Shown piece after piece: positions 15,402 to 61,228 of a stretch of DNA of 64,000 nt. How positions within the stretch are numbered: position 1 is the stretch's first letter; every line of letters begins with the position of its first letter. Both the position numbers and the translations under genes were made by a program. The notes beneath the pieces were generated by a model. That model was not told the origin of the DNA, did not search any database, and saw only the letters and a list, made by a program, of their open reading frames with translations. This stretch comes from Somniosus microcephalus (lineage: Eukaryota), in contig CM126205.1 in the NCBI GenBank assembly GCA_052327205.1, positions 258,478,001-258,542,000 on the forward strand, written 5' to 3'.

Positions 15402-15736
15402 CAGGAAACTTTCTGGTATCCGGCACTGACAGGACCGAGCTGGTGCCGTCCCATCAAAACTGCCGTACAAACCAGCGCTAATGTTAAAACATACGGAGCT
15501 TTTGAGCTCCGTATGAATCAACAAACCCTGTTGCTTAGCAACAGCTTCAAAACAGTCGGCCGCAGCTTAAAAGCGTCTCTGTAGCTAAGCAACAGCTTCA
15601 GCTAGACCTTGCAGAGCCTGACGGGGAAAAAAAAAGCAACAAGAAGTAAAAAAAACTTATCGGAAACGGCTCCTGAATTTTGCCGGTAGATAGAGCTTTC
15701 CGGACATTTAACCTCCGGTTAAACGAAAGTTTCCTG
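15402..15736. mobile_element. TA-targeting MITE (Tc1/mariner/pogo superfamily), copy 1
   Basis: TA|CAGGAAACTTTC ... GAAAGTTTCCTG|TA; internal palindromes at 15530 and 15581. Confidence 0.92.
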
Positions 15737-16759
15737 TATGTTGCCTTGCTTGGAAATCTTACCAACCCGTGTCTGAATTTCCTATTTCTCTCTCTCTCCA
15801 CCAACCCCCCTCAATTTGCCACTCAACTTGATAACTTTATTTATATTGCTGGTTAGGCAATCTACTGAGCAGTAGCCTGTGATTATTGTATAATTATTAA
15901 ACTTTTGTTTTGTAATCAAACTGTGTATTGGCTAGTTTAGTGGCCATAATTGCATTAATTCTGGGTTTGTGTGTATCCAGCCATTTCTGGTGGTTTGGCT
16001 TTCATGTCTGGATACCATGCGGTTAGAACTGTACCAGATGGACACAGAAGTATGACGAGACTTCAAAGCAAGTAATTTTAAAATATTATTCATAATTTGT
16101 ACTGCGTTAGACAATCAGTTGCCACAGAGTAGTTTGGGATTTTGTTTTTCCAGTCACTACAGCTACAATTTGCTGGCAAGTCTGAGAGACCACTTTATTA
16201 ATGGAAATAAAACTGTCATAATATCAATAATACCAATTGCAATCCTGCATTTTGCCTCATTAGGAGTTATTTCCAGTGGAATCACTGTGTACATAGAATC
16301 ATGCTACTTGAAATAATGTAGTAGCAATCTGTCAAAACTCAAATCTGTTTAAAAATGCCATTCCATATATGTCGACTAAAATTTTAAAGCTCTATCTGTT
16401 TGACAACGCACTCTATAAATTAGTATGTTTTAGATAAAAATGCAGTAGATCCATTTAGCAAAATGATCTGTTGATGAGCTCAACAGCACAATAAATGAGG
16501 AAATTATTAACTGCTTTTCAACATATCAAGCACACAGCCAGAGAGCTAATAGTGCTCAGTGCCCGAGATACTTGGAGGTAGTACAATAATTTGTTTTTAA
16601 TTTTCAGTGGAAAAAATAATGCTTTGTTATATGTGCTTGCATATTAAATTTATTGAACAGCAAATGTAGTTTATTGTAAAGGAACTTTTAGTAAATTCGA
16701 GACTTCCAGGGGACATTTATGTCACCCATCTAGAAGAAAGGCAATCAAAGTTACTGACA

Positions 16760-17610
16760 CACAAACAGAAAATTCTGGCAACACTCAGCACGTCAGGCAG
16801 TACCTGTGGAGAGAGGAACAGAGTTAACGGCCCGGGAATTTGCAGTCGGCGGCGAAGCAAAGGCTTTCACCGGTGGCCCCGAAGTAAACTTCACACAAAG
16901 ATCTTGTGAGCTCTGTCGAATTTTAGGTGTTCCAGTGCATAATTCAAATCAACGTAGTTTAGTGGGAATCCCATAGTGTGAGCTGCTGTGACGTCAACAA
17001 GCTGTCCAAACAGCCAATCAAAACGCAGAATTCTCACACTGCGAACCAGGAACTCTTAAAATTTTTACTTTTTAAAAATGTTAGAGAGCAAAACAAAGAT
17101 TGGGGCTCTCACATCAGTGGGAAAGGCAAACCCGAAATAAAGATGAGCAAACTTTAAAAAAAAAAGTTTCTTAAATTTTAATTTTAAAAATTGATAAATT
17201 TGACACTGCACAAAATTTAAATTCGTTTTTCGCGGCCTAACCTTCCTTTAGCAGTCAATGCGCTGTTAAAACCCCAGTTACACCTAACCCAAAAGAGTCT
17301 TCACTTTTAATGGGGTATTTAATAGCGTAATTACTGAGAAAGAGCCGACATTTTCGTCAGTTTCCATGATTTGAGAAATTTCACTGATTACCGGCTCTGG
17401 GGTGGCTGGGGGACACAGTGCAGCCTATGGAGGAGTAGTGAATGACAGACCACAACTTCTAGATTACCACATTAGGCTGCGCATGCGCTAAATGCTGAAG
17501 TTGTGGTTAGTTTCAAAGGCAAAATGATGGCGAATGCTGCCCGTTCACTGTAATCAGGACTGCACATTCCGGGCCAACGTTTCAGGCCTGTGACCTTTTC
17601 CTCATAACTT
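16760..17610 (-). mobile_element. Penelope pLTR-type short fragment split by a MITE insertion
   Basis: 16760-16828 joined to 17579-17610 gives the reverse complement of the 43405-43500 pLTR (GAGTTAAC|GTTTCAGG). Confidence 0.75.
16829..17575. mobile_element. Non-autonomous PIF/Harbinger-type element
   Basis: TIRs GGCCCGGGAATTTGCAGTC / GACTGCACATTCCGGGCC; 3-bp TSD AAC, confirmed by reconstructing the interrupted host repeat. Confidence 0.85.
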
Positions 17611-17640
17611 GAAACGCGATGTGCAATAGCCAGCTCCATA

Positions 17641-17655
17641 CCAGCAGGTGGCACT
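17641..17655 (+). promoter_or_regulatory. Candidate CTCF site
   Basis: CCAGCAGGTGGCACT matches the consensus CCASYAGRKGGCRSY exactly; motif match only. Confidence 0.45.
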
Positions 17656-17753
17656 TTCTCACTGCACTGCATCAGAAATTTATTGATCTTCAACTTCTGA
17701 CTAGTTGCCAAGCCAGACTAATCCCTTCAGAATGTATCTCTGTAGTCTATATT

Positions 17754-18340
17754 GGGCCGTATTTTGCGACCCCTCAGGTGCGTAGGGGCCGTGCAAGTTC
17801 CGGGTTTAGATCCTCTGCATCCCCAGGAGATGGGCCTCTGCGGGTGGAGAGTTGCGCTATTTGCACAACTTCTGCCCGCTGAATGCCTGTCAGTTTAAAA
17901 AAAAAAGACAAAGAAAATTTTATCACCCATTTTATAAATTTAAAAAACTCTTCAATAAGGTAAGTTTATTTTTAGCCCAGTAAAAAAACATTTTTCAAAA
18001 ATTAATTTAAAACATTTAAAATCATTTTAAATATGTAATTTAAAAAATACATATTTCATGTGTTGTATTTTTTTAAATGATCCCCATTCATACTTATTGG
18101 AGTTCCGTACATACAGAACTCCAAAAGTATGAATGGGGATTCCGTTCATTTATTGGTTGGGCTGGCCCACGTGATCCCAGGGGGCACCTACAAACCGCCT
18201 GCATCCCTGGGATACAGGGATTTCTGCCCGCGCAAACCCGGAGAGGCCCAGGATCGCAAGCCTCCATACCTCCCGGGCCACCAGGTACATTCGTAGAATT
18301 TTTGCAGGTCGGTGGAAGCCTCCGATGCAAATGTTGGCCC
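17754..18340. mobile_element. Probable Harbinger-type MITE
   Basis: TIRs GGGCCGTATTTTGC / GCAAATGTTGGCCC; GC-rich ends and AT-rich middle like 16829-17575. Confidence 0.6.
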
Positions 18341-19743
18341 TGTATTTGACTACCGCTGCACTTGTTACAGGGACTCCCAAAGAGATTGCTTTCAAATTCA
18401 AACTTTTCAGGAACCTTTCATGAATTAAATTTTATAAGAGATTAATACTTTGTCTTTGCAAGTTGTTTATTGGTAGCTGTTTGCTGGATCTTTATTGGTA
18501 GTTTTCTTAACTCCCTGTTACGTGTTCGTAGGTAACGTTCCTAACTGCTTTCCTGTCTTTTGAGTAATGTTTCAGACAATTCGGAACATTCAGTTAATGT
18601 TTGCAGTAACTTCTTGCTTATTTGTGAATTTTGGCAGACCTCTAGTGTTGCCCACAATGAGTTAGAGGGTATGCTATTTTGTGCTATATTACAGACACAA
18701 AACTAAATGTTACAGTTAACTCTATCAGGTCAAGGGAATTCAAGGTTTACTGAACTAGCCATTTCTTAAAAACTTCAGCTCACACAATTTGATGGTAAGA
18801 ACATTGCAATAATAAAGTTGTTCTGTCTGACATAGTTTCATTACTGTAATTCCAAACCTGTATAACAAACATTTTAGCAAAAATAATTTTTCCGTTTAAC
18901 CTAAACTATTCCTGTATGCTATATTTCCTCTTTTTTATTCTCTCCAGTGTTCTCTGTTCCATTTTTAAGAACATTATTTGAAAGTTTTAACTAACTGCCC
19001 TATTTGCACCATTCTGTGCCTTTTTTTCCTATTGATTTTGTTTTTAAGTGCTTTCCTCTGCCTGTTGAATCCTCCCTCCTGGCCCAAGTTCATTTTGAAA
19101 GTACGATTCACGATGTGGGGGAAAATTGGCCTTTGGCTAAAAATCCATGTAAAAGCCACTTTATTTTAGCAAGTCAAGTGCCAGAAAGTGATCTGATCAA
19201 CTTTGATGCCTTTTAAATTGTCAAATGGAAAATAGTTCCACTGCAGCAGTTACCTTGTCCACAGTTCCAGCAACTTGATTGTATCCAGCAGCCCAGACAA
19301 CTTGCCTATGGTGCTCTAAGACGTTAAAAAAATTATATCTGGAGTAGTAATATAGTAATCCATCCCTTGAGTTGATATGCCCAATGTTATAACTGCAAGA
19401 GCACAGTGGGGTTAGCTTATAATGGAAGTAAAACTGCTTCTATGACTGCTATGTAATCACATCCAGTTATCAGGTTTTTTTTCTATACATCAGTTGCTCG
19501 GGTATTTGTGCCTCTAACTCCCTAATTTCCCAATTTTGACATGCAAGGGTTGCCATAGTATATTTCTGTGTTGACTGTCAATCTTTTAAAAGCCCACACT
19601 TTACATATAGTTTTTTTTAAACTGTCATAACAATTACATTTATATGTAATTAGTTATCCAGACTGAGTACATATTGTATTCAATGAAAAGAAAAATGTGG
19701 ATGTGGAATTGCTGGTCCTGCATTCAACTGATGATTGATTATG

Positions 19744-20094
19744 GGCAGCACGGTGGCATAGTGGTTAGCACTGTTGCCTCTCAGCACCAGGGACCCGGGT
19801 TCGAATCCGGCCTCGGGCGACTGTCTGTGGAGTTTGCACATTCTCCCCGTGTTTGCGTGGGTTTTCTCCGGGTGCTCCGGTTTCCTCCCACAGTCCAAAG
19901 ATGTGCGGGTTAGGTTGATTGGCTATGATAAATTGACCCTTAGTGTTAGGGGGATTAAATACGTGGGGTTACGGGGATAGGGTGGGATATGTGTTGGTGT
20001 AGGGGTTACGGGGATCGGGTGGGATATGTGTCGGTGCAGGCTCGATGGGCCGAAATGGCCTCTATCTGCACTGTGGGGTTTCTGGGATTTCTGG
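19744..20094 (+). mobile_element. HE1-like V-SINE, full length
   Basis: tRNA head (TGGCATAGTGG; GGTTCGAATCC), V domain GGAGTTTGCACATTCTCCCCGTG..TCCGGTTTCCTCCCACAGTCCAAAGA, CR1-derived tail CTCGATGGGCCGAAATGGCC; flanked by GATTATGG. Confidence 0.93.
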
Positions 20095-21329
20095 GATTAT
20101 GGTAGCTGTTATTTATCCCTCTTAGTACCAGCAGAGTGTCGGTTCCAAGAAACATTCTGTGCATTGTGCAGCTTTTTGAAACATTTACTCTTCTGAGAAC
20201 TGGAAGGCACAAAGTATTTGCTCTTAAGTGCTAGTTTTATAATCTAGTCCTGGCAGAGGGAATTAAATTGTCTGCATGTTTAGCATCACGAGTACATTTT
20301 GTTGAAGTGTTAATCCACCTTTTCATACAGTTAATCCTCTTGAAAGAAATGTTTATCGTAATTTAACGCATTTAGGTGGGTTTTATACTGTACCAGCTAA
20401 TTAATACAGCATTCTTCCATTCATACTTTAATACCATGGATAAATTAAGATAAGCACTCTGGAAAATAAGTTTAAATGTAGAAGTCTGCAAAAGTATTTT
20501 TAAGATATGAGGTTTCCAACCTATCCTATATCTCCAAGACCTGAACAAATCCCTAACGAGGGAAGATTTCAAGAGGATTGCTGTACCACGTCATCCACCT
20601 TTCTCTCCCTTAAAACAGACATGGGTTACAGACTGGAGCTGGTTCTCATCAACATCGGTGTATGTCATGGTTAATTAACAGTTATTGCCAAGTTGGGTGA
20701 AGTGTAAGGGAGTAAACCTTTTGCATACTAACATCAAATTTAGAGATCTTGGCTTTTCCTTTCCTATTTGCACTCCACACACTTTGGAGCTATAACAGTA
20801 CTGTAATACTGAAGTTATTTTTTCTTACATTTATTCAGTTTTGATCTTGCATGTGTGGGGAAAAATACAGCTAAATGTAATTAATACACTGTTAATGATA
20901 TTATCATCTACAATGCAGACCTGCAATGTATTACAGAACTAAACTATTCTATCTACACAAACTGATCACTTAAATTTTGAGCTCCTTACTAATTGTTACA
21001 TTTTTGAGTCTTTCTGAATTTCTTACCCGAGATTATTTTGGCTCTTGGATTCTTCTCCTTGCTGAATCCCAAAACTGTCTTTCTAAACTTTGAAATCTAT
21101 GTAAGATTTTTGTAATGTGCATGAATAAGCAAAAAGTGAGCACTGTCTGGTAACTGCTTTTGGTACTGGACTGTCTTGTGCCTCTAAGATCCCACTTTCA
21201 GTCTTTAAAGATGAAAGATGCTCACAGCAGACATTGTATTTTGAGTTTAAAGTATTAACTGAACATATTATTAAACAATTGTAAGAAGTCACACAACACC
21301 AGGTTATAGTCCAACAGTTTTATTTGAAA

Positions 21330-21366
21330 TCACAAGCTTTCGGAGCGCTGCTCCTTCGTCAGGTAA
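21330..21366 (-). ncRNA. Minimal hammerhead-ribozyme-like motif in pLTR
   Basis: UUAC-CUGACGA-A-GGAGC-AGC-GCUCC-GAAAGCUU-GUGA: conserved core, stem II and palindromic AAGCUU stem III. Confidence 0.65.
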
Positions 21367-21742
21367 AGTGGAGAGATGCATAAAGACACAGCTTATATAG
21401 TCAGAGAATAATGCCAGATGGTTACAGGTAATCTTTCTAACTGCCATTTATCACACCTTGGCAGAGAGATAATCACAGCAATCAAAGGTGTGAATGGTGT
21501 CCAAACAGGTCAGTCAAGAAAACATTACATCAAAGAACAATGAGGTGGGGTCACAAGGGGTCATCAAACTCACCATGGACTACTCCTCAGAATCGGTTTC
21601 ATTCTTGAACACACGAATCTCTATCAAAGACTGACACCTCAGCACTTCACTCTACCGCAAGCCCACGGACAACCTCAGGATGCTCCACTTCTCCAGCTTC
21701 CACCCTAACCACGTTAAAGAAGCCAGCCCCGATGGATAAACC

Positions 21743-22558
21743 ATGCGAATACACAGGATCTGCTCAAACGAGGAGGAATGCGATGGACACCTACAGACGC
21801 TGAAAGACGCCCTTGTAAGAACGAGATATGACGCTCGACTCATCGATCGACAGTTCCGACGGGCCACAGCAAAAAATCGCATAGACCTCCTCAGAAGACA
21901 AACACGGGACACAACCAACAGAGTACCCTTCGTCGTCCAGTACTTCCCCGGAGCGGAGAAATTACGCCATGTTCTTCGCAGCCTTCAACATGTCATCGAT
22001 GATGACGAACACCTCGCTAAGGCCATCCCCACGCCTCCACTACTCGCCTTCAAACAGCCGCCTAACCTCAAACAGACCATCGTTCGCAGCAAATTACCCA
22101 GCTTTCAGGAGAACAGCGACCACGACACCACACAACCCTGCCGCGGCAACCTCTGCAAGACATGCCAGATCATCAACACAGATACCATCATCACACGTGA
22201 GGACACCACCCACCAGGTACATGGTACATACTCATGTAACTCGGCCAATGTTGTCTACCTCATACGTTGCAGGAAAGGATGCCCCGGAGCATGGTACATC
22301 GGCGAGACCATGCAGACACTGCGACAACGGATGAATGGACACCGCGCAACAATCGCCAGGCAGGAGTGTACCCTCCCAGTCGGGAAACACTTCAGCAGTC
22401 AAGGACATTCAGCCTCCGATCTTCGGGTAAGCATTCTCCAAGGCGGCCTTCAAGACAGACGACAACGCAAAATCGTAGAGCAGAAACTGATAGCCAAGTC
22501 CGGCACTCATGAGGACGGCCTCGACCGGGATCTTGGGTTCATGTCACGCTACATGTAA
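21743..22558 (+). CDS. PLE RT C-terminus + GIY-YIG endonuclease (fragment)
   Basis: RIHRICS, RVPFVVQY, PCRGNLCKTC, NVVYLIRCRKGC..WYIGET..LRQRMNGH, E..LI..GL. Confidence 0.85.
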   Translation: MRIHRICSNEEECDGHLQTLKDALVRTRYDARLIDRQFRRATAKNRIDLLRRQTRDTTNRVPFVVQYFPGAEKLRHVLRSLQHVIDDDEHLAKAIPTPPLLAFKQPPNLKQTIVRSKLPSFQENSDHDTTQPCRGNLCKTCQIINTDTIITREDTTHQVHGTYSCNSANVVYLIRCRKGCPGAWYIGETMQTLRQRMNGHRATIARQECTLPVGKHFSSQGHSASDLRVSILQGGLQDRRQRKIVEQKLIAKSGTHEDGLDRDLGFMSRYM

Positions 22559-23280
22559 CCCCACCTGACGTTGGGTCATCCAGACTCGAGTCGTCGTTGG
22601 CTTGTTCTCTCTACACAGATGCGGCCGGAACTGCTGTGATTTCCAGCAAAAGAAATGTTTTTTTGTCTTTTTTGTTTTTCATACAGACCCCAGCATCTGC
22701 AACATTTGACCCCTTGTGACCCCACCTCCTTGTTCTTTGATGTAACGTTTTCCTGACTGACCTGTTTGGACACCATTCACACCTTTGATTGCTGTGATTA
22801 TCTCTCTGCCGAGGTGTGATAAATGGCAGTTAGAAAGATTACCTGTAACCATCTGGCATTATTCTCTGACTATATAAGCTGTGTTGTGCATTGAGTGCTG
22901 CTAGAGTTTGGTAAGAGGGAGAAAAGTCATTTAAGTGTATTTTGTGAATTTTAGTGTGTTAAAAAGTTAATTATTTGAAGTGTGTTTAATTTTTAAGTGT
23001 ATATTAAACTGTTGGGGAGTTTGAACTGGAAGTAGAATCAGGGTATAAAAGGGGCGGGACTAGTGCGTGTGCATGGAGTGCTGTGCATTGAGTGCTGCTA
23101 GAGTTTGGTAAGGGAGAGTTCGGGCAAGTGGGAGGTGAGGGTGTGTTTTTGCTCTGTTTTGTTCCCCACTCCCAGGCTTAGACAGCACTGCGGAAGCGGA
23201 GCAGCGAGACGAGTCAACCAAACAGGCCCCACAGACAGTATTCAAGGAGGAGGTTGGTGATCAGCTGGTTGGTTGGTTTT

Positions 23281-26200
23281 ATACATAGATACATAGAAGA
23301 TAGGAGCAGGAGTAGGCCATTCGGCCCTTCGTGCCTGCTCCGCCATTCGATGAGATCATGGCTGATCCTTTAATTCAGTATCCCGTCCCCGCCTTCTCTC
23401 CGTAACCCTTAACCCCTTTTGCCCGTAGAAATATATCTAATTCCCTCTTAAATATATTTAATGAGCTGGCGTACACTGCCCTCTGTGGCAATGAGTTCCA
23501 CAGGTTCACCACTCTCTGAGTGAAGAAATTCCCCCTCATCTCTGTCCTAAATGGTTTAGCCCTTATCCTTAAATTATGTCCTCTAGTTCTGTTCTCACCC
23601 GCCAAGGGAAACATTCCTTCTGCATCCAGTCTGTCTAGACCTGTCAGAATTTTATACACTTCTATGAGGTCCCCTCTCAATCTTCTAAACTCCAGTGTGT
23701 ACATCCCTAAACTACATAGTCTCTCCTCATAGGTCATTCCCGCCATTCCTGGTATCAGCCTGGTGAATCGCCGCTGCACCCCCTCCATGGCAAGAACATC
23801 CTTCCTCAGATGAGGCGACCAAAACTGTACACAGTACTCGAGGTGTGGTCTCACCAGTGCCCTGTACAGCTGCAGCAAGGTATCCCTGTTCCTGTATTCT
23901 AACCCTTTTGCTATGAAGGCCAGCATACCGTTTGCCTTCTTGACCGCCTGTTGCACCTGCATGCTCGCCTTCAGTGACTGGTGTACAAGAACACCCAGGT
24001 CTCTCTGTACTTCCCCCTCTCCCAATCTATTGCCATTTAAATAATAATTTGCCCTCCCGTTCCTGCACCCAAGGTGGATAACTTCGCACTTGTCCACATT
24101 ATAGTGCATCTGCCATTTATCCGCCCAATCGCCCAGTCTGTCCAAATCGCTCTGGAGCTTCCTGGTCTCTTCCTCTGAGCCCACCCCCCCTCCTAGTTTA
24201 GTGTCGTCTGCAAATTTGGAAATGCTGCATCCGACTCCCTGATCCAGGTCATTAATGTAAATTGTGAACAGCTGGGGGCCCAGGACAGATCCCTGTGGTA
24301 CCCCACTTGTTACTGCCTGCCATTCAGAAAATGAGCCGTTTATTCCAACTCTCTGTTTTCTATCTGACAGCCAGTTCCCTATCCACGCCAAAACTTTCCC
24401 CTTTATCCCATGAGCCTCAATTTTCCATGCTAATCTTTTATGTGGGACCTTATCGAAGGCCTTTTGGAAGTCCAGGTACACCACATCTACTGGCTCTCCC
24501 CCATCTATTCTACCAGTTACTCCCTCAAAAAATTCCAATAGATTAGTCAAGCACGATTTACCCTTTGTAAATCCATGTTGACTCTGTCCTATCCTGTCCC
24601 CATTTGCTAAGTGCTCCGCTATTTCATCCTTAATGATGGACTCCAGCATTTTGCCCACAACTGATGTAAGGCTTACAGGTCTGTAATTACCTGCTTTTTC
24701 CCTACCCCCCTTTTTGAATAGTGGGGTAACGTTAGCTACCCTCCAATCCATCGGCACTGTTCCCGAGTCTAATGAATTCTGAAAAATCATCCTTAGTGCA
24801 TCCGCTATCTCTAGGGCCACCTCCTTCAGTACCCTAGGATGCATGTTATCAGGCCCTGGGGATTTGTCCACCTTCAATCCCTTTAGCTTCCTTAACACCA
24901 TATCCTTAGAGATATTGATTTGCGTCAGTTCCTCCTTTGCCAATGTCCCTATTTTTCCCGATATCCCAGGGAGGTTTTTTGTGTCTTCCTTCGTAAAGAC
25001 TGACCCAAAGTATGCATTTAGTTGATCTGCCATTTCCTTATTTCCCATTATATATTCCCCCGTATCTGACTGCAATGGACCAACTTTGGTTTTCACCAGT
25101 CTTTTCCTTTTGATATATTTATAAAAGCTTTTGGAGTTAGTTTTTATATTTTCCGCCAGCTTGTTTTCGTAAGCTATTTTGCCCCTCTTGATCATGCCCT
25201 TTGCCCTCCTTTGCTCTATCTTAAACTGTTCCCAATCTTCCGCTCTGGCGCTTTTTTTGGCTATTTTATACGCCCTATCTTTGGATTTTATGCTGTCTCT
25301 AATTTCCCCTGTTATCCACGGTTGAGTCACCTTTCTAGATTTCCTTTTATGCCAGATTGGTATAAACAATTTTTGCAATTTTGTCATTCTATCTTTAAAT
25401 GTTTGCCATTGTTTATCTACCTCCAGTCCTCCCAGGAACGTTGTCCAATCAGACCTACTCAGTTCCCGTCTCATGGCATCATAATTCCCCTTGTTTAAAT
25501 TCAGGACCTTAGTCTCTGAGTCAATTTCTTCGCTCTCCATTTCGAGTGAGAAATCGATCATGTTATGATCGCTCTGACCCAAGGGTCCCCGTACAACAAG
25601 ATTACTGATTAGTCCCTTCTCATTGCACAGTACCCAGTCCAATATAGCCTGTTCCCGAGTTGGTTCCTCGACATATTGATCCAGATAACCATCCCTTAAA
25701 CACTCAAGGAATTCCTCCTCCTCATTATTTTTACTGATTAGGCTAGTCCAATCTATATGTAAGTTAAAGTCACCTATGATGACAGCTGTGCTCTTATTGC
25801 ACGCTTCTCTAATTTCCCTCGTGATGCCCTCCCTAACCTCTATTTTACTATTTGGAGGCCTATATACCACTCCTATTAATGTTTTTCGCCCCTCGCTATT
25901 TCTTAGCTCCACCCATATAGATTCTGTATTAACTGAGTTAATATCCTTCTTTTCAATTGCATTTATCCCCTCTTTTACTAGCAATGCTACCCCTCCTCCC
26001 TTTCTTTTTTGTCGATCCTTCCTAAATACTGAATACCCCTGTATGTTAAGCTCCCAGCCCTGCTCACCCTGCAACCATGTTTCCGTAATCCCAATTAGAT
26101 CATAATTATTAACCTCTATTTCCACAGCTAATTCATCTACCTTGTTCCTGATGCTTCTCGCATTAAGGTATAAAACCCTCAGGCTTTTTTTATGCTCACA

Positions 26201-26326
26201 TTTTTTATGAATTAGTTTGGCCCTTTGTTTTTTGTTCCTCACCCTTTTACCATTTATTTCTGTCTGCCTTTCACTTTCCTCTATTTCACTACATAGGTTT
26301 CTAGCCCCCTGCCATACTAGTTTAAA
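23281..26326 (-). mobile_element. CR1 LINE (copy B), 5'-truncated at the ORF1/ORF2 junction, young
   Basis: Uninterrupted ORF2, CR1 3' stem and (TATGTATC)n tail; host copy A resumes at 26327. Confidence 0.95.
23375..26326 (-). CDS. CR1 ORF2, AP endonuclease + reverse transcriptase, intact
   Basis: YLNARSIRNK, ITETWL, GDFN, SDH; NYRPVSLTS, LDFQKAFDKV, GVPQGSVLGP, FADD. The listed 955-aa ORF starts at a GTG (26242), but the frame stays open 28 codons further to TTT AAA at 26326. Confidence 0.95.
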   Translation of the reverse strand, partial: FKLVWQGARNLCSEIEESERQTEINGKRVRNKKQRAKLIHKKCEHKKSLRVLYLNARSIRNKVDELAVEIEVNNYDLIGITETWLQGEQGWELNIQGYSVFRKDRQKRKGGGVALLVKEGINAIEKKDINSVNTESIWVELRNSEGRKTLIGVVYRPPNSKIEVREGITREIREACNKSTAVIIGDFNLHIDWTSLISKNNEEEEFLECLRDGYLDQYVEEPTREQAILDWVLCNEKGLISNLVVRGPLGQSDHNMIDFSLEMESEEIDSETKVLNLNKGNYDAMRRELSRSDWTTFLGGLEVDKQWQTFKDRMTKLQKLFIPIWHKRKSRKVTQPWITGEIRDSIKSKDRAYKIAKKSARAEDWEQFKIEQRRAKGMIKRGKIAYENKLAENIKTNSKSFYKYIKRKRLVKTKVGPLQSDTGEYIMGNKEMADQLNAYFGSVFTKEDTKNLPGISGKIGTLAKEELTQINISKDMVLRKLKGLKVDKSPGPDNMHPRVLKEVALEIADALRMIFQNSLDSGTVPMDWRVANVTPLFKKGGREKAGNYRPVSLTSVVGKMLESIIKDEIAEHLANGDRIGQSQHGFTKGKSCLTNLLEFFEGVTGRIDGGEPVDVVYLDFQKAFDKVPHKRLAWKIEAHGIKGKVLAWIGNWLSDRKQRVGINGSFSEWQAVTSGVPQGSVLGPQLFTIYINDLDQGVGCSISKFADDTKLGGGVGSEEETRKLQSDLDRLGDWADKWQMHYNVDKCEVIHLGCRNGRANYYLNGNRLGEGEVQRDLGVLVHQSLKASMQVQQAVKKANGMLAFIAKGLEYRNRDTLLQLYRALVRPHLEYCVQFWSPHLRKDVLAMEGVQRRFTRLIPGMAGMTYEERLCSLGMYTLEFRRLRGDLIEVYKILTGLDRLDAEGMFPLAGENRTRGHNLRIRAKPFRTEMRGNFFTQRVVNLWNSLPQRAVYASSLNIFKRELDIFLRAKGVKGYGEKAGTGY

Positions 26327-26447
26327 TGCTTCTCTTTTATTCCTTTAAGTTGGTAAGTCCTATTGAATAGTGGTGTAATAGTATCATCTATATCGGGGCA
26401 AAGGGTCTTCATAACTAATAATAATAAATTTAATTAATTACATAGAT

Positions 26448-27395
26448 ATGGGTGAACAGGTGATGTGTCACTGTTGCGAAATGTGGGAGCTGGTGGACCC
26501 CATTGAGGCTCACAGTGATTACATTTGCGATAAGTGTTTGCTGCTAGAGGAACTCAACCTCCATGTTAAAGAGCTTGAGACCGAGCTTCAGACACTGCGA
26601 CACATCAGGGAGGGGGAGAAGTTCCTGGACTCTATGTTGCAGGAGGTGGTCACACCTATGAAATTAATTACTGTAGATGTAGTCCGTGGTCAGGGACAGG
26701 ACGGTGTGACTACAAGTGAGGAAAGGGATCCAGGATGTAGTGTTGAAGGAGACGCAGCCCTTGCTCTTGTCAAGCAGGATCGAGGTTCTTACTCCCTGTG
26801 AGGGTGGGAGCGGGGACTGCAGGGAGGATGAGCAACCTGGCCACAGCACCGTGGAACAGGGGGCCATTCAAGTGGAGGGAGTAAAAAGAAATGTTGTAGT
26901 GGTAGGGGATAGTATCATTAGGGGGATAGATAGGGTTCTCTGCAGTTGAGAGCGGGAGTCCCGAAGGCTGTGTTGCCTGCCCGGTGCCAGGGTTAAGGAC
27001 ATCTCTTCTGTGCTGGAAAGAAACTTGGAGTGGGAGGGGGAGGATCCAGTTGTCGTGGTCCATGTTGGTACAAACGACGTAGATAGGACAAGGAAGATGG
27101 TTCTGTTAAAGGAGTATGAGCAGCTAGGGGTCAAATTAAAAAACAGAACCTCAAGGGTAATAATCTCTGGGTTATTACCTGAGCCACGAGCAAATTTGGC
27201 TAGGATAAATAAAAAGAGTTAAATGCGTGGCTCAAAGACTGGTGTGGGAGAAATGGGTTTTGCTTCTTGGGACACTGGCACCAGTACTGGGACAGGAGGG
27301 AGCTGTTCCGTTGGGACGGACTCCACTTGGCCAGTGCTGGGACTAGAGTCCTGGCGAATCATATAACTAGGGCTGTAGAGAGGGCTTTAAACTAA
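26448..27395 (+). pseudogene. CR1 ORF1 (zinc finger, coiled coil, SGNH esterase), disrupted
   Basis: CHCCEMWE..YICDKC, leucine-zipper heptads, VVVGDSIIRG, VHVGTND, DGLHL; ends RALN*; contains frameshifts and a stop. Confidence 0.88.
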
Positions 27396-32070: not shown

Positions 32071-32086
32071 CAGCGCCACCTACAGG
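32071..32086 (-). promoter_or_regulatory. Candidate CTCF site
   Basis: Minus strand CCTGTAGGTGGCGCTG, one mismatch to consensus; motif match only. Confidence 0.4.
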
Positions 32087-33163
32087 AGCAGTACCTTTTG
32101 GAATCCCAAGATCACTCACTGTGGGTAATTGTACAGAGTGTTTATTGACACCGCTGTGTCAGCCAGTGAGTTGGAAACCGTGCTGGAGTTATGGCAGGAC
32201 TTGCAGCAAACAGTGTATTTTACAGCAAATAGTCTATTTAAAAAGAGTCTTTATGAACTACAGCCAAAACTCATGATCGAAACTGCAACAACTTTTCTCG
32301 ATAAAAGCAGGGCAATTTCGTCAGCAAAATGCAGGGAGGAGAGTTACATAATACAAATTATGTGTGCAAAATCAATCCCAGTCACTTACAGCAGTGCGGA
32401 CTTCAGGTGTGATTGACGGGGGAATTACCCAATCATCTCCATTCTGGCTGGAATAGTGGTGTCATTATATGCAGCCATAATTGTAACACAGGAACATAGG
32501 CATAGGCTGTTCAACCCTTCATGCCTGTTCCGCTGTTCCATTTTAAACAAAACAAAATGCTGGCTTTATTTTCCACATTCTCTCAGTTGGGATTGCATCA
32601 TTCTGACCTGAGTGTTTTCAGCATTGTCTGTTTTCATGTCCATCATGTGCAGTTTTTTGCTTTTTGTTTACTTCTATTTTATCTAGTCTCCAAAAAAACC
32701 TAGGAACATTCAGAACCCATCCTGGACCAAATGCACTTTAACAGGCTTCTACGGAAAGAGACACTCCAATTGACAAAATTGCTTTTGATTGCGGTGGAAT
32801 GACTCATTTAGTTTGTACCCTGAGTACTGTATGCTGTTTGGTTTGCAACTCCATGCATTTTATCTCACAAATTGTAAATACCTTGCACTCATAATGGGCT
32901 CCTTGGATGATGAGGGAGATAGAGAAGATGATGAAACAAAAAAAGAGGGTGTATGATGAATGTCTGGTGAATTCTTCGAGAGAACTAGACCAAATACAAT
33001 AAGTTGAGAGGGGAACTGAAGATGAAATAAGATTGGCAAAGAGAATATGAGAGTAGAATGGATGTTAACGTAAAAGGGAACCCAAAAATCTTCTACCGGC
33101 ATGTAAATAGTAAGCGGGTAGTAAGAGGCTGGGTGGGGCCTATTGGGGACAAAGAAGGTGATA

Positions 33164-33496
33164 CAGGAAACTCTCTTTTAACCGGCACCTAAATAACTGG
33201 AAATCTCTGTTAACCGGCAACATTCAGGAGTAGGTTCAGGTAAGTTTTACTTCATATTAGTGGCAGTTCCTGGATCTGTGGCTGTGTAACTGGGGTTCGT
33301 GCACTTGTTGCTAAGCAACAGGGACGCTTGGCCGGTGGCCGGAGTTCATGCGCATGTTGCTAAGCAACAGGGAAGCCTGGATTTGTTGCTGTGTACGGAG
33401 CTCTTGCACCTTTTAATTATATCTCTTTGTAATCCGGACTTTTTGATAAACCGGCACCACGCTGGTCCCGTTGGCGCCGGATAATAGAGTTTCCTG
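33164..33496. mobile_element. TA-targeting MITE, copy 2
   Basis: TA|CAGGAAACTCT...AGAGTTTCCTG|TA; GTTGCTAAGCAAC at 33307 and 33356. Confidence 0.93.
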
Positions 33497-33644
33497 TATA
33501 TGCTTAGAAGCGCAGGGCAAGGCTGGAATACTCGATGAGTACTTTGTATTGGTGTTTACTAAGGAGGTGGATGCTGACAAAATATCAGTAGAAGTGGAAA
33601 AGGTAGAAGCAATGGAAGGGGTGAAAATTGATAGACAGGAGGTA

Positions 33645-33980
33645 CAGGAAACTTTGGTTTATCCGGAGGTTGTATGTCCGGAAACCTCGATCTAACGGCA
33701 GAAATCAGCAGCCGTTTTGGTTAGGTTTTTTTTCTTCTAGCATTTTTTTTTTTTAACAGTCAGGCTCTGGAAAGCGTCTCTGTAGCTTAGCAACAGCTTC
33801 AGAGATGCTTCCAAGGTACGGGCCGAGTGTTTACAAGCTGTTGCTAAGCAACAGTGTTTGTTGTCAGATACGGAGATGAAAACCTCCGTATCCTTCAACA
33901 TTAGCGCTGGTCTATCCGGAAGTTTTGATAGATCGGCAGCAGCTCGGTCCCATCAGTGCCGGATATCGCGAAGTTTCCTG
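33645..33980. mobile_element. TA-targeting MITE, copy 3
   Basis: TA|CAGGAAACTT...AAGTTTCCTG|TA; palindromes at 33782 and 33840. Confidence 0.93.
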
Positions 33981-35577
33981 TACTAGAAAGGCTGGGCATG
34001 CTTAGCGTGGATAAGTTGCCTGGTCCAGATGGCTTGCATCCCAGGTTGCTAAGGGAATTGGGGGAGGAGATAGTGGAAGGGTTTGCCATAATTTTTCAAT
34101 CTTCCCTAAATGCGGGGGAGGTGCCTGAGGATTGGAAAGTAGCAAATGTGACACCATTGTTCAAGAAAGGGTGTAAGGACAATCCTAGTAACTACAGGCT
34201 GGTCAGTTTAACATCAGTGGTGGGTAAAGTTTTAGAAACAAGTTTTTCCTTGATTTTTAACGGGCACTTGGAGAGGTTTAAGCAAATTAAGGAGAGCCAA
34301 CATGGATTTGTAAAAGGTAGATCGTGTTTGACTAATCTAATTGAATTTTTTGATGAAGTAACAGGGAGGATTGATGAAGGGAATGCAATGGATGTTGTCT
34401 ACATGGATTTTTGGAAGGCATGTGACAAAGTACCACCTAGAAGGCTGCTTAACAAAATTGAGGCTCATGGAATAGGTGGGTCAGTGGCAGCTTGGATAAG
34501 GAATTGGCTTAAGGACAGAAAACAGCGAGTTGTGGTAAATGGCTGTTTTTCAGACTAGAGGATGGTAGACAATGGGTTTCCCCAAGGGTCACTGCTTTTT
34601 TTGTTAAACCTGGATATTCGAATACAGAGTAGAATTTCTAAATTTGCCGATGACACCAAACTTGGCGGTGTGGCAAACGGTGAGGATGATGCCAATCGAC
34701 TGAAACAGGACATAGAAAGACTAGTAGAATGGGCAGACAAGTGACAGATGGAATTTAATACAGAGAAGTGTGAGGTGATGCATTTTGGCAGAAGGAACAG
34801 GGAGAGGCAATATACAGTTAATGGCACAGTTTTAAAGAGTGTGCAGGGACAGATGGACCTGGGAGTTAATGTGCATAGGTCCCTGAAGGTGGCTGGACAT
34901 ACTGAGAGAGTGGTTAGCAAAGCATATGGGATCTTGGGCTTCATAAATAGAGGTATTGAGTACAAAAGTAGAGAAGTTATGCTGAACCTTTATAAAGCGC
35001 TGTTTACGCAACAACTGAAGTATTGCATCCAGTTCTGGTCACCACACTTTAGGAAGGATGTGAAGGCACTTGAGAGGGAATAGAGGAGATTTACCAGAAT
35101 GGTTCCGGGGATGGGGATCTTAGCTACAAGGACAGGTTGGAGAAGCTGGATTTGCTTTCATTAGAGCAAAGGAGGTTGCAGGGTGATTTGATAGAGATGT
35201 ACAAGATTATGACAGATTTGGATAGACATGGGGAAAGTCTGTTCCCACTAGTTGACGGTACAAGGACTAGGGGACACAGATTTAAGGTTTTGGGCAAGAG
35301 ATACAGGGGGTATGTGAGGAAAACTTTTTTACGCAGCGAGTGGTGAGGACCTGGAACTCGCTGCGGACGGACGTGGTGGAAGCGGACACACTCAATGTTT
35401 TCAAGGGGAGACTGGATAGACACTTGGAAATAAACTTGCAGGGCTACGGAGATAGAACGGGGGAATGGGACTGACTGAATTGTTATACAGAGAGCCAGCA
35501 CGGACTCGATGGGCCAAATGACGACGACCTGTGCCGTTATGACTGTATATGAAGAGACAATGAAAAAGTTCTGTTTT

Positions 35578-37960: not shown

Positions 37961-38316
37961 CAGGAAACTTTGTTTATATCTGGCACCGACGGGACCGAGC
38001 TGTTGCCGATCTATCAAAACTGCCGGACATACCAGCGTTAATGTTGAAGCATACGGAGATTTGCAGCTCCGTATCTGGCAACAAACGCTGTTGCTTAGCA
38101 ACAGCTTCTAAACAGTCTGCTGTACCTTGGAAGCGTCTCTGAAGCTGTTGCTAAGCTACAGAGAGACTTTGCAGAGCCTGATTGTTGGGGAAAAAAAGCC
38201 ACGAGAAGGAAAAAAAAAAGCCACGAGAAGAAAAAAAACCTAAAAACGGCTCCTGATTTCTGCCGGTAGATCGAGGTTTCCGGACATACAACCTCTGGAT
38301 AAACCAAAGTCTCCTG
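37961..38316. mobile_element. TA-targeting MITE, copy 4 (in the probable ARL6IP6 3' UTR)
   Basis: TA|CAGGAAACTTTG...CAAAGTCTCCTG|TA; palindromes at 38090 and 38147. Confidence 0.92.
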
Positions 38317-39864: not shown

Positions 39865-40197
39865 CAGGAAACTTTCGATTTACCGGCACCTAAATAACCA
39901 GAAATCTCGGTTAACCGGCAAAATTCAGGAGTAGGTTCAGGTAAGTTTTACTTCATATTCTACTTGCCTTCCTCGATCTGTTGCTGTGCAAGGGTGTGGC
40001 TGCAGCTGTTGCTAAGCTACAGAGACGCTTGGAACTTATGGCCATTGTTCTGAACCTGTTGCTAAGCAACAGGGTTTGTTGCTTTATACGGAGCTCTCGG
40101 CTCTCGTATCTTTTACTATAGCTTTCGGTTATCCGGAATTTTTGATGAACCGGCACCACGTCGGTCCCGTTGGTGCCGGATAAAAAAAAGTTTCCTG
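39865..40197. mobile_element. TA-targeting MITE, copy 5
   Basis: TA|CAGGAAACTTT...AAAGTTTCCTG|TA; palindromes at 40008 and 40058. Confidence 0.92.
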
Positions 40198-43533: not shown

Positions 43534-44639
43534 TACATTTATATTTAATGTTTTAGGTGGGGTAAAATTGCTTTTTAAACCATAAAATCTTATTTTATTT
43601 TGACTGTAGAAGATGGCATCTTTGCAAATGGCTACGAAACAACCCTTCCATTAGTCAAATATTGAAGTAGCCTACATTTTGAAATCTGCATGCATTGTCA
43701 CTCATCACCATTTATGGAATAGAGTTGATTCAAGGCTTGAGACTGGTATATCAGGGATTTTAAACTTGCTTCATTACAGAACTGAATTTTTTTTTGTACT
43801 AAAATAGCCAGGAGAGAATTGAAAGTGATAATTTCAAACTTCACTCATGATTTGTGATGCCTTCAGAGCTCAGATGTGCGATGTTGTACTTTTCTATACC
43901 TAATGCAACATTTTTAAGTAAGTTATAACAACAATTTTGAATGTAACAGCATTCTTAAACACTTTGAAAGATATTGGTAGAAGTGTAAAAAATGAAATGT
44001 TTTATTAACTTTGGAAAGGGCATTTTTGTTACTGTATTACGGATTACTGTTACTGATTGAAGCTAATTTGTAGTGAATGTACAGAATTGCTGTAATCTCT
44101 CAATGTGTGTTTCAGCTACTGTTAAATAAAGGCAATTTACTGTTAAACTGTTTCCATATAATTCACATAGCTATTGCTATACTGTTGGGGTAGGGTAAAG
44201 AAGCTGGCTGTGTGGGCTCACCTTTGATTCCCCTGAAAAGCTGAGTACCTGTTCTCTGTGCTCTCCAACAGCAATACAGTGCTTCCCTATAGGGAATGAA
44301 AAATGGAAAGAGATTAATCTTGCCATACTCCTCTAGACCTCTGAGCAGCTTCAAGTATGGGTAGAAACTGAGCCTATCTGGAGAAAACTTGCATTCCTTG
44401 CTATTCCATTGTGGCGACATTTGACTATTGTAGCAGAAATTGGTTCCAGTTTTAATTGAATATACTTGCACTGAATTGACAAAGCTCGAGCATACAAATG
44501 TTACTATATTACTCCAGAATGTAGAGTTGAGGTATAGTTTTTTATTAATGACAATAACGAGGAATGCAACAGTATTCTCTAGATAGGCTCAGTTTGTACC
44601 TATACATGAAGCTGCTCAGAGGTCCAGAGGAATATGGCA

Positions 44640-45400
44640 AGATTTACCTTCTGCTAGAACTGCTGTAATCCTTGTGGGGATGGTGCTCCCACAATAGCTC
44701 CCTCCTATGTAGGGAATTACAGGATACTGACTGATTGAGGGAATGAATATGCATATCCAAGTCAAGATGGTGTGTGACTTAAGAAGGAACTTCGAAGTTA
44801 TAGTGTTCCCACAACATTGCTGCTCTTGTCTTTCTTGGTGGTAGATGTTCTCGGGGAGGGAGGTGCTGTCAAAGTAACCTTTTGAGTTGCTGCTGTGCAT
44901 CCTATAGTTCATGCATACTGCAGCCACTGTGCACCAGTGGTGGCGGGGACAGCAGAGATGCCAATCAAGCAAACTGCTTTGTTCTGGATGTTGTTGAGCT
45001 TATTGTGGTGTTGGGCCGACTCCCATTCGAGTGAGTGATGAGTATTCCATCACACTCTTCACTTGAGCCTTGTAGTTGGCGGAGGGCTGTGAAGAGTCGG
45101 GAACAATGTTCCCTATAAGGTGCATGGCTGCGCACCTCTCTGCCGGGACCAGTTTTATCAATGCGAAGTTTTGCGTATGTGCGGAACTGTGAATGGGCTG
45201 TGCAGTCCCTTTAAAGGGGCCGCGCACCCCCAAAAAATTAAGAGGGAACATTGGTGAACAACTTGTCGCGGGGTAACCAGTTTCTGCCCTGCTCTTGTAG
45301 CTGCAGTGTTGACATGGCTGGTCCAATTAAACTTCTGTTCAATCGTTACCCCCATTACGGTGATGGTGGGGGAAAAAAGTTTTATTGGATAATTTGAAAT
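44640..45400 (-). mobile_element. Decayed LINE fragment, same family as 5375-6120
   Basis: MGVTIEQKFNWTSHVN, YKAQVKSVMEYSSL remnants. Confidence 0.8.
45104..45253. mobile_element. 150-bp MITE, hAT-like ends, inserted in the LINE
   Basis: TIRs CAATGTTCCCTATAA / TTAAGAGGGAACATTG; no clear TSD. Confidence 0.7.
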
Positions 45401-57300: not shown

Positions 57301-58090
57301 CAGACTTTGGCGGGGCCTTCACAGGCTCCAAAACCCAGAGGACGACCACCAAAGGCATATAAGCAGGTGCAGCAGGGAAGTGAGCAGGCTGCCTCTACAT
57401 CTGCTGAAGCCACGGGGGTGGCACCACGTAGAAGCACGCATAAGAGAAAGCTGACGCATAAATAATCACAAGGGTACTCACTTAGTTGTTCTGCTAGAAA
57501 TCAATGTTAAGTTTCTGTTCTTTTATTTTGTTGGAATAAATTAATGTTGTGTGAATATTTGACATCGTTGCCATATGTGTGCTCACAATTTGAGGTGGCA
57601 CAGTAAAGGGTGAGGGCACCTTTTATGTCCAACAATGGAGGTGACAGTGGATATAAAGTTAACACCACACACTTACAGCCTCAAGACAGAATGTATCTCC
57701 CAAATCATGAAATCAGCAACCTCTGACTTTTGAAAGTGAACAGATGTGAGAGTGCAGCTTTTAGACTGCAATTGCAGCTGTGAACTATCCAGCTCGTTGG
57801 CCCTCCCGACATACTTACCTGGCGTGATCTCCAAACGTCATGAAACCCATAGAAAATGTGGGACAATAGGAAAAGGCTGTCAAAATAGCAGTTAACAAGG
57901 AGTTAAGTGCCTTAAAATCCCTCACTCGCCGCTTGGTGTCGCGTCTATTGTGAAATCGCAGACCCGTCACTTTTGAAACTCACACGGAGGCGGGATCGCA
58001 GTGGGTTTCCAACCCATCATCAATCATTGCTATTTTAACAGCTGACCTGCCTCCGAACCTGCTCTCTGAATGCTGGCAAAATCGCGGCCC
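54380..58090 (+). mobile_element. Harbinger-type element encoding only a spliced Myb/SANT-like protein, decayed, split by a CR1
   Basis: TIRs GGGCTTGATTTTCCA / TGGCAAAATCGCGGCCC; AERPKAAPHF..SLHVLVEGVRGRREVLYP; acceptors at 54948 (EKRAHNERERTGGGP) and 55254; C-terminus PRGRPPK..RRSTHKRK; AATAAA at 57535. Confidence 0.65.
55531..57062 (-). mobile_element. 5'-truncated CR1 LINE with internal deletions
   Basis: RT ORFs 56313-56906 and 55967-56260; (CATAGAAA)n tail; deletions near 55695 and 56025. Confidence 0.92.
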
Positions 58091-58479
58091 TTGTGTCCAT
58101 TTGCATGCATGTTTTGAGTGCCACTCCAGACCCAAGCCCATCACTTCTACTTCCACTTCTTTCTCCCCATTTTCTCTTTTTTCTTTTTACCCCATCTCTC
58201 CTGTTGTCATACCTCCTTTCATTTCTCCCCTCTCTGGCAATCTGCCCTCCCAAATCCCTACCCCAAACCTTCAGCACTCCTCAACCTTTCTACTCTCCTG
58301 CCACTGTCCCAGGCTTGACTACCTCTTAGATAAGTCTACTGCTTACCTCTATGCGCCTCTTGACATCCTCCGAATGGCCCATCGAGACACTCGTCGCTGC
58401 CTCCTTACTGCCGCATCCTACACTCCCACCTACCCTCCTGCCCAACACGCCTGCTGGGGGCTAATCTTTCCTGCCTCCT

Positions 58480-59490
58480 TCCCATCCCACTATCCCTCCC
58501 AATGCTGACCCTGTGGACTCTGCCACTGGATCAGCTCTCACCACCCCACTCTGCAGCTCCCTCCAGAATGTCCATTCACTTGTGAAAAAGGGCCTTGCCA
58601 TCCATGAGCTTATTGTGGATGATTGTATCGATATTATGTCCTTGATGGAAACTTGACTGAGGGATGATGATGCCTCCCCGCCTGGCTATACCTTCCCCCA
58701 CTTGCCCTGCCTAAACTGTGGTGGTGGTGTGGCTCTTATCACCAAATCACACCTTGATCTGTTCATCCACTCCTCTGGCACCTTCTCCTCCTTTGAGCAT
58801 CTCACCTTATTCCATCCCTCTCGCATCTCATTTAAAATCCTCACTCTCTACCACCCACCCAAGTAACATGCCAAATTTCTCACCAAGGTACCTTCACTCT
58901 GTTCCTCCCTCAGCCTCTGCACCGAGCGACTTCTCATCCTCGGTGATTTTAACCTCCATCTCAACTCATCATGCTGGCTCTCCTCTGAGTTCACTGCCCT
59001 CCTATCCTCCCTTAATCTCTCCCTCCATAGAAACTCCCCTGCCCATATTCACAGCCGACCCCTTGACCTTGCCATCACACATGGCCTCGCTAATCCCACT
59101 GTGTCAATCAAAGATAAGGCCATCTCTGATAACTTCCTTGTATCGCTCTCCACCCATATCCCCCTTACCCCTCCCAAACCCACTACCTTCCATATCCACT
59201 GCTAGAAAAAACTCTCCCCCAACTCACTTACAACTGCACTTTCAAATTTCCAAATGTGTAGCCTTTGGCCCTCCATTCACCACGACATTTCTGCAGCTAC
59301 CAAGCTCCTCAATCACACCCTTACCTCTACCTTTGATGCCCTAGTCCCCATTAAAGCCATTACACTCGCTCTCTCTCTCTCACCATAGGCAGTCCCCTGG
59401 TACAGTCCTCACCTCCATACCCTTAAGCCCAAGTTACGCAGACTTGAAATTTTATGCTGGACATCTGGTTTAGCCATTTATCGCCATTTC
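58480..59490 (+). mobile_element. L2 LINE fragment (AP endonuclease region), decayed
   Basis: LQNVHSLVKK..I..ET*L..PPGYTF..GGGVAL, YHPPK, ILGDFNLH, LDL, ISD motifs across frames; C-rich strand typical of L2. Confidence 0.8.
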
Positions 59491-59499
59491 TTTTGAAGG

Positions 59500-60290
59500 G
59501 ATAATTACTAGTCCTAGCCCCTTAAGGGCTACCCCGGATCAAACGTATTTCTCAGATGTTCACTTTCAACTAAAGTTTGAGGTAGCCGAATCCTAAAGAC
59601 GCTTAATTGGGTCTAAAGGTCCGGACTATCTCTCCCTAAAGGAAAGGAACAACCTGAAAATGTTACTGTCCTCCAAATAGCATTTTTAATAAGTTTAGCT
59701 AGACTGTAACATTCCGGATATTATGAGGGTCCGGAAAACTCCCCCAGAATTCTGAAACTCCTCACCAAAGAGTGTACAGAAATTGAGTTCGCGAGTTTTT
59801 GATACAGAAGTCTTATGTGAGACAATTATAAAAATATATAGATTTATTAAAGAACCAACATGTAACTTATAGTTGGTGAGTCAATTGCAACATTAACAGT
59901 TCCAAAAAGAGAAAGCTTACAATCTTATTATCAGAGAACCTTACTTTCAAATCTTAACTTCACTACAGCTTTACAGTTCTTAGTGTTCTACAGGATGTCC
60001 ACCAAAATCAAATACCTTTGATCCCTGAGGTACAAAGGGTTGGAGACTTAGAGTCGCCTCTGAAGCCAAGAATCACTTTGCCCGATTAAAGCGAGTCTGT
60101 TATCCCGTTTGAGAGTTCAATATTTATACCCTTTTCCAGTGGTATTTCCTTTAAGGTTTTCTGCTGATGCAAGCTAATTATCTCTAGTAATTTTTCTGCT
60201 GACCTCTGCAATTCTTACTGCCAGCTCAGCCAGACTCGTGTCTCATCTCTAGGTGTTCTAAGTTTGCCATATAAAAAATGGTGTGACGGC
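59500..60290 (-). mobile_element. Probable LTR plus leader fragment of an LTR retroelement
   Basis: Minus strand: TATAAATA (~60128), AATAAA (~59848), ..GTACA end (~59773), then TGGTGAG (PBS-like). No partner LTR or ORF. Confidence 0.45.
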
Positions 60291-60319
60291 AGGTGTTCCT
60301 TACTTTGTGCTTCTTTACG

Positions 60320-61228
60320 AAGTGGTGGGTCTGTCCTGCCGGTGGGACAGGACATACCCAGGGATGGTGATGGAGGAGTCTGGGACATTGGCTGAAAGGT
60401 ATGATTCTGTGAGTATGACTACATCAGGCTGTTGCTTGACTAGTCTGTGGGACAGCTCTCCCAATTTTGGCACAAGTCCCCCGATGTTAGTGAGGAGGAC
60501 TTTGCAGGGTCAACTGGGCTGGGTGTGCCATTGTCGTGTCCGAAGCTGGTGCCGAGGTCGATGCTGGGTGGTCCAGTTTTATTCTTATTATTGCTTTTCG
60601 TAGCGGTTTGTTACAACTGAGTGGCTTGCTAGGCCATTTCAGAGGGCAGTTAAGAGTCAACCACTTTGCTGTGGGTCTGGTGTCACATATAGGCCAGACC
60701 AGGTAAGGACAGCAGATTTCCTTCCTTGAAGGACATTAGTGAACCAGATGAGTTTTTACAACAATCTGATAGTTTCATGGTCACTGATACTAGCTTTTTA
60801 TTCTAGATTTATTTAATTAACAGAATTTAAATAAACCAGCTACAGGAAACTTTGTGTTATCCGGAGGCGAACCGTCCGGCAAGCTCGAGCCACCGGCAAA
60901 AATCAGGAGCCGTTTTTTATTCTTTTCGTTTCTTTGCTTTTTATGAACAGTCAAGCTCTGCAACGTCTGTAGCTAAGCAACAGCTTCAGCTAAAGACGCT
61001 ACAAAGACGCTTGCCGACTGTTTAGAGGCTGTTGCTAAGCAACAGGGTTTGTGTTTCAGCATTAGCTCTGGAGTGTACGGCAGTTTTGAGGGAACGGCAG
61101 CAGCTCGGTCCCATCAGTGCCGGATAGCACAAAGTTTCCTGTACCATGGTGGGATTTGAACTCGCGTCTCTGGATCATTAGTCCAGGCCTTTGGATTACT
61201 AGTCCAGTAACATAACCACTATGCTACC
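60320..61228 (-). mobile_element. 5' end of a tRNA-headed LINE running into an AP endonuclease, split by MITE copy 6
   Basis: Head GGTAGCATAGTGGTTATG..GAGTTCAAATCCC; then LTNIGGLVPKLGELSHRLVKQQPDVVILTESYLSANVPDSSITIPGYVLSHRQDRP. Confidence 0.8.
60843..61141. mobile_element. TA-targeting MITE, copy 6
   Basis: TA|CAGGAAACTTTGTG...CACAAAGTTTCCTG|TA; palindromes at 60969 and 61031. Confidence 0.93.

Follow-up and report, generated by a model that had tools for sequence, protein, structure and literature searches.

Six Short Elements with Paired Palindromes

A 64,000-nucleotide stretch of Somniosus microcephalus DNA (assembly GCA_052327205.1, contig CM126205.1, positions 258,478,001 to 258,542,000 of the forward strand; hereafter the window, numbered from its first letter) contains six copies of a miniature inverted-repeat transposable element (MITE), each of which carries two palindromes that resemble the X-box, the binding site of RFX transcription factors. 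The element starts reported by a first-pass annotation were confirmed, each beginning with CAGGAAACT directly after a TA, and a right end directly followed by TA was located for every copy: c1 (15402–15736, 335 bp), c2 (33164–33496, 333 bp), c3 (33645–33980, 336 bp), c4 (37961–38316, 356 bp), c5 (39865–40197, 333 bp), and c6 (60843–61141, 299 bp). The right end at 38316 has the variant form AGTCTCCTG. Thus, TA flanks both sides of all six copies, and all six have imperfect terminal inverted repeats (TIRs) of ~22 bp. The copies measure 299–356 bp and together occupy 1,992 bp; they lack coding capacity, and the open reading frames (ORFs) that overlap them have no Pfam match. The six elements are genuine, short, non-coding MITE copies.

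Copies c1 and c4 are on the minus strand and the other four on the plus strand. Once they are placed in the same orientation, all six align over their full length with 69–90% identity and form two main subtypes (bootstrap 100): subtype B consists of c2 and c5, and subtype A of c1, c3, c4, and c6, with c3 and c4 as sister copies at 90% identity. The interiors, described earlier as strongly diverged and as forming at least three subtypes, are therefore not unrelated. A conserved TACGGAG/TACGGCAG had also been described next to the palindromes, but these are two distinct things. TACGGAG, which is present in 5/6 copies, is the left arm of a separate hairpin (TACGGAG...CTCCGTA) that is complete in 3/6 copies, including c1, where a sequence scan placed it at 15492–15513; it is not conserved in all copies, having been lost from c6 in a 30-bp deletion. 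In c6, TACGGCAG represents a subterminal motif of the element end; c1 has this end motif in addition to TACGGAG.

A scan of the 64 kb for GTWGCTWAGCWAC palindromes recovered 12 matches, all within the MITE copies and all at the coordinates previously claimed (0.004 expected). In every copy, the site nearer the 3′ end (site 2) is a perfect X-box: 15530–15542 (c1), 33356–33368 (c2), 33840–33852 (c3), 38090–38102 (c4), 40058–40070 (c5), and 61031–61043 (c6). Site 1 is of the GTAGC type in c1 (15581–15593) and c5 (40008–40020), where, as in c2, it is unflipped; in c3 (33782–33794), c4 (38147–38159), and c6 (60969–60981) it lies in a micro-inverted segment. The pairing of one perfect with one GTAGC-type site, which the annotation had presented as usual, was found in 5/6 copies, the exception being c2, in which site 1 (33307–33319) is also perfect. 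The start-to-start separations (51, 49, 58, 57, 50, and 62 bp in c1 to c6) agree with the claimed range of 49–62 bp. As a side observation, 4/6 copies, all between 15402 and 40197, have a length of 333–336 bp, and site 2 lies 127–129 bp from the 3′ end in 5/6; the steady length and position persist despite compensating insertions and deletions in c2, a possible length constraint.

All 12 sites match the published 13-bp RFX X-box consensus, GTNRC(C/N)N0-3RGYAAC (PMC2859551), as the annotation had proposed, and the perfect site is one base away from the PyEP RFX1 probe given in the same source. The window contains 15 consensus sites; the copies account for 12 of them, against an expectation of 0.11 for their 1,992 bp. 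RFX binding at these sites is predicted from this fit. The boxes are situated 98–158 bp from the nearer element end. An X-box of this kind suits the broadly expressed RFX1-type proteins as well as the ciliary and testis proteins RFX2 and RFX3, and the sequence gives no reason to favor germline RFX2/3 over the broadly expressed RFX proteins. Scanned for the double palindrome, metagenome contigs gave a single match, which is an unrelated coding tandem repeat of 36 bp (L001:1-180) in which the palindrome occurs by chance; viral contigs gave 0 matches.

Conservation of the Palindrome Cores

Conservation was assessed in an alignment of the six copies with the inversions undone, using non-CpG columns. 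Of the core columns, 24/26 are invariant, compared with 50/106 in the non-CpG interior and 56/94 in the non-CpG terminal regions, and the core excess persists after CpG columns are removed. The longest invariant run in the element is 16 columns, at site 2, whereas the longest in the TIR is 9 (permutation p 0.00036). The only two variable core columns sit at positions that the RFX consensus leaves free. Within copies, the cores of site 1 and site 2 agree at 12–13 of 13 bases, whereas their flanks agree at 13/30 in c1 and c5. Simulations that allow for post-hoc choice of the motif give p values of 0.0009–0.001 for the run and 0.005–0.006 for two windows. Thus, the cores are more conserved than their flanks in these six copies, at a significance level that varies with the null model; for this sample the excess is genuine, if modest. 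Read depth also peaks locally at the cores (in runs X1, X5, and X11 for c2, and in X1 and X5 for site 2 of c3), which is a crude sign that the cores are widely shared.

Duplication and Inversion History of the Two Sites

The best self-match within the elements is at a lag of 49–51 in c1, c2, and c5 (26/40 in c1 and c5, 34/40 in c2), and the two sites arose through an old internal duplication of ~50 bp. In c2, where both sites lie within a 49-bp tandem duplication with those 34/40 matches, the duplication is recent. At least two inversions have affected site 1: c6 (inverted segment 60966–60994) carries 27/27 of the c1 bases reversed, and c3 (33780–33802) carries 31/32 reversed, with endpoints unlike those of c6 and shared with c4 (38139–38161). 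Because the endpoints differ, the inversion in c6 is independent of that in c3 and c4. The c3 segment lies within an inverted repeat that was rebuilt in this copy, and an opposite-strand joint (33772/33821) in runs X1 and X23 agrees with the inversion. Short inversions with flanking inverted repeats fit a template-switch model (PMC5453318).

The X-box match was kept through the inversions of site 1, while the spacing shifted from 49–51 to 57–62 bp; therefore, no fixed geometry is needed. Variable spacing is in keeping with a dimeric factor that reads a symmetric site and out of keeping with a transposase complex of rigid shape. Helical phasing between the boxes was rejected because their spacing ranges from 49 to 62 bp.

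Probable Affiliation with Tigger Elements

The elements very probably constitute a non-autonomous Tigger (pogo superfamily) MITE family in a cartilaginous fish, as judged from their termini. Tigger elements are defined by a TA target and TIRs of 8–33 bp (PMC9219625), a definition that takes in the TA target and ~22-bp TIR of the MITEs. In addition, CCGG-type motifs are repeated in each end, at positions 19, 34, and 51 on the left and as an inverted set on the right. The ends were compared by eye with the first ~400 letters of each row of a published table of elements (PMC7386202, Table S1), so that the resulting counts carry no E-value. By this comparison, the ends of c5 are nearest to a published Tig1-like1 Tigger: its left end has 37/56 gapless matches to the Malaclemys element, and its right end has 18/24 and then 25/30 matches to a Chelonia element. 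The first 22 bases of c6 match a published Tigger end at 18/22. In a published tree figure, a skate Tigger stands beside Tigger10 and turtle and crocodilian elements (PMC9219625).

Features shared with the Tig1-like1 Tiggers of turtles and crocodilians, again by eye, include the TA target, a TIR of ~22–25 bp beginning with CAG, a TTATCCGGCA motif that keeps its register, three subterminal motifs in direct orientation at the 5′ end, and an inverted GGTGCCGG block at the 3′ end. Unlike these Tiggers, the MITEs lack an ORF, are 299–356 bp long, and have G rather than T as the fourth base; furthermore, their interior, with its two X-boxes, is unlike the first ~400 letters of the Tig1-like1 elements. 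Scans with the TIR gave one viral and five prokaryote matches, none of which resembles a copy beyond ~24 bases and which are, by their sequence, chance matches. There were 0 Rfam matches.

Insertion Sites and Genomic Context

Copies c2 and c3 lie 146 bp apart within a degraded ORF2 fragment of a CR1 long interspersed nuclear element (LINE) on the plus strand (32960–35114; boundaries approximate), the paralogues of which supply empty sites. For these two copies, four sequencing runs were aligned at 80% likeness. An empty-site joint from 33161 to 33497, skipping TA and the element, was found for c2 in 4/4 runs, and joints near 33640 to 33981 were found for c3. Because the joints skip TA plus element, TA is a true target-site duplication in the 2/6 copies tested. 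The stretch 33140–34000 was matched in sequencing runs of at least five organisms, and no RNA run was listed among the matching indexed runs. There are six copies in 64 kb, and at 80% likeness the contigs form a very deep pile-up, which is not a measure of copy number.

In run X11 (organism D), coverage is deep on c2 (subtype B), and no contig falls on 33680–33895 (subtype A); this suggests that organism D lacks subtype A or has a more diverged form of it, with the caveat that contigs show presence, not absence. The same pattern may point to a lineage-specific burst. In an RNA run (X23), of whose reads 139/5,491 are at least 99% alike, so that most come from other copies, first-mate-plus reads on subtype B (33284–33499) are 2.5–6 times commoner, opposite to the CR1 flanks; the bias probably reflects a few expressed host transcripts that carry a copy.

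The window is a repeat-rich animal region. Among its repeats are a hAT transposase, CR1-type LINE ORF2 copies, an env fragment, and a PNMA/gag frame; scans of the window ORFs revealed no host exon. One CR1-type ORF2 (23375–26344, minus strand) is open for 989 aa and encodes endonuclease and reverse transcriptase; four further copies in the window are degraded. The hAT transposase frame (9564–10880, plus strand) is open over 438 aa, with zf-BED, DUF659, and hAT dimerization domains, and was rejected as the MITE partner, the MITE being TA-flanked. An open frame of 468 aa (239–1645, minus strand) with PNMA and zinc-knuckle gag-like domains may belong to a long terminal repeat retrotransposon or a domesticated gag, and retroviral env-like fragments with TLV_coat occupy two frames at 62383–63160 (minus strand). 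At 21386–22884, 178-bp inverted repeats (98%) surround a 272-aa frame without a Pfam match, which resembles a Penelope GIY-YIG region. A short interspersed nuclear element headed by tRNA (19745–20100) resembles elasmobranch V-SINE HE1, which makes a shark host probable. The element at 44311–44649, with inverted arms of 79–92 bp (88–89%) around ~180 bp and without X-boxes, is possibly a second MITE family. A near-perfect palindrome of 61 bp stands isolated at 18080–18140.

Possible Selection on RFX Sites during Amplification

Our preferred reading, to which we assign a probability of about 0.45, is that selection while the elements were active kept the RFX sites. A Tigger transposase made elsewhere would bind the TIRs together with the ATCCGGCA-type motifs repeated next to them, excise the element, and insert it at TA. 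Copies bound by a host RFX dimer would be better substrates, having open and less methylated ends, and RFX-bound copies would have founded the next subfamily, with purifying selection keeping the boxes during subfamily amplification. A symmetric site would tolerate inversions and changes of spacing, but not base changes outside the free positions; after insertion, copies would decay neutrally. In this scheme, that RFX binds, that binding favors transposition, and that the germline is involved are all inferences.

A route through methylation would be plausible because the transposase motifs in the MITE ends contain CpG and because RFX motifs contribute to the unmethylated state of a CpG island: at the Gtf2a1l promoter, mutated RFX motifs led to raised methylation (PMC8286816). 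RFX1 and RFX5 are also listed among methyl-CpG binders (PMC6923324). A broader form of the proposal, that a vertebrate non-autonomous transposon evolved a host RFX pair that raised its own mobilization (such as by holding CpG-containing transposase sites open in germ cells), retained it despite duplication and repeated inversion, and so supplied several shark genomes with many strong RFX sites, of which some are now enhancers in ciliated or germ cells, is in our judgment doubtful.

Several results weigh against selection on RFX sites. There are only six copies, and the motif was picked after the fact. Because 17/39 possible single changes would keep the RFX consensus, the two tolerated core changes are weak evidence. 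Simulations with stronger rate variation give p 0.007 for the run and 0.056 for two windows, and with block-correlated rates the values rise to 0.03–0.10 and 0.11–0.31, respectively. No core change is seen among the 25 MITE rows in the 40 of 200 difference rows listed, but with ~1.9 expected this is not significant. In the sister pair c3/c4, 7/20 CpGs have been lost, 5.7 times the non-CpG transition rate, although this ratio comes from small counts and control repeat pairs span 1.8 to 87; because of this loss, the inserted copies seem to have been methylated, and lasting hypomethylation of inserted copies is unsupported. No pile-up of RNA starts was found at the copies in run X23, the tissue of which is unspecified. 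A partner transposase (CENP-B-type helix-turn-helix, DDE_1) was found in 0/238 scans of window ORFs of at least 62 aa (89 frames in known retroelements or already scanned ORFs were excluded), and none of the exact X-box forms searched occurs in the first ~400 letters per row of pogo representatives (PMC7386202). Finally, part of the pattern needs no selection, as internal duplication would yield two sites and template-switch inversions local symmetry.

These last processes are the core of one alternative, in which mutational mechanics and chance account for the likeness of the palindromes, by way of template switching, internal duplication, and a sequence free of CpG, and no protein binds. The two independent micro-inversions of site 1 and the rebuilt inverted repeat of c3 fit the template-switch model (PMC5453318), the 49-bp duplication in c2 is recent, and the clustered-rate nulls give p 0.03–0.31. 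However, template switching restores symmetry rather than one given sequence; the neighboring TACGGAG...CTCCGTA hairpin is complete in just three copies; the core excess survives removal of CpG columns, and the exact RFX fit would be a coincidence. We consider this account unlikely. We are similarly disinclined to the possibility that the boxes derive from the RFX-driven promoter of a shark-specific autonomous Tigger, in which they are conserved, and were carried passively by derived or converted MITE subfamilies. With the relatives oriented by their visible ORF starts, the boxes fall ~130–230 bp from the terminus corresponding to the Tigger 5′ end, a region that holds promoter and start codon in the published relatives, but the turtle and gharial relatives are without an X-box in their first ~400 letters. 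Moreover, the inter-box spacer has diverged freely between subtypes, which passive copying from one parent leaves unexplained.

Conservation implies merely that something reads the sequence, and the reader might be the cognate transposase, a domesticated Tigger-derived protein, or a host factor other than RFX; motif pairs in Caenorhabditis elegans MITEs are read by the transposase-related HIM-17 (PMC9757741). Cognate-transposase binding looks unlikely because the ATCCGGCA-type motif shared with Tigger ends is unlike the palindrome. The varying spacing (49–62 bp) and orientation, together with the perfect fit to the RFX consensus, make any such binder quite improbable. Retention of copies after insertion as host RFX enhancers is very improbable: singleton changes do number 1 in 156 core bases vs. 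22 in 564 terminal non-CpG bases, but c2 and c6 contribute most of them, possibly as subfamily changes, c3 and c4 differ at 0 core positions where 1.8 are expected (not significant), two copies sit within a dead LINE, and the window holds no detected host exon.

Comparison with Known Systems

Because MITEs encode nothing, drift is expected in their interiors. If selection on RFX sites is the correct explanation, an interior motif that is more conserved than the ends to which the transposase binds would mean that a gene-less element was selected to recruit a host transcription factor; this would bear on why MITEs outcompete their autonomous partners and would make the family a major contributor of RFX sites to shark genomes. 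Should the conservation vanish in a full alignment, the family would be an ordinary Tigger MITE and a neat example of template-switch inversion. In the literature searched, which mostly left subscription papers outside and did not cover Repbase or Dfam, we found no report of RFX site pairs in a Tigger or a vertebrate MITE and no occurrence of the exact 13-mer palindrome, although paired X-boxes occur in promoters (PMC3245922).

The spread of factor motifs by MITEs is already known, and the family belongs to a known element class with an unusual interior constraint that the data support moderately. Plant MITEs have amplified E2F, bZIP60, PIF3, and TCP motifs (PMC5950925) and likewise spread transcription-factor motifs genome-wide; they differ in their hosts and factors, and in being framed as host rewiring rather than as a benefit to the element. 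The MITEs CERP2 and CELE2 of C. elegans carry m1m2 motif pairs (PMC9757741) and, like the shark MITE, present paired factor-binding motifs, having seeded thousands, with a proposed germline link. In CERP2 and CELE2, the motifs form part of the inverted repeats and are read by a THAP protein, and a function as promoters was demonstrated, whereas the motifs of the shark MITE, known from sequence alone, are interior and match an ancient family of host factors.

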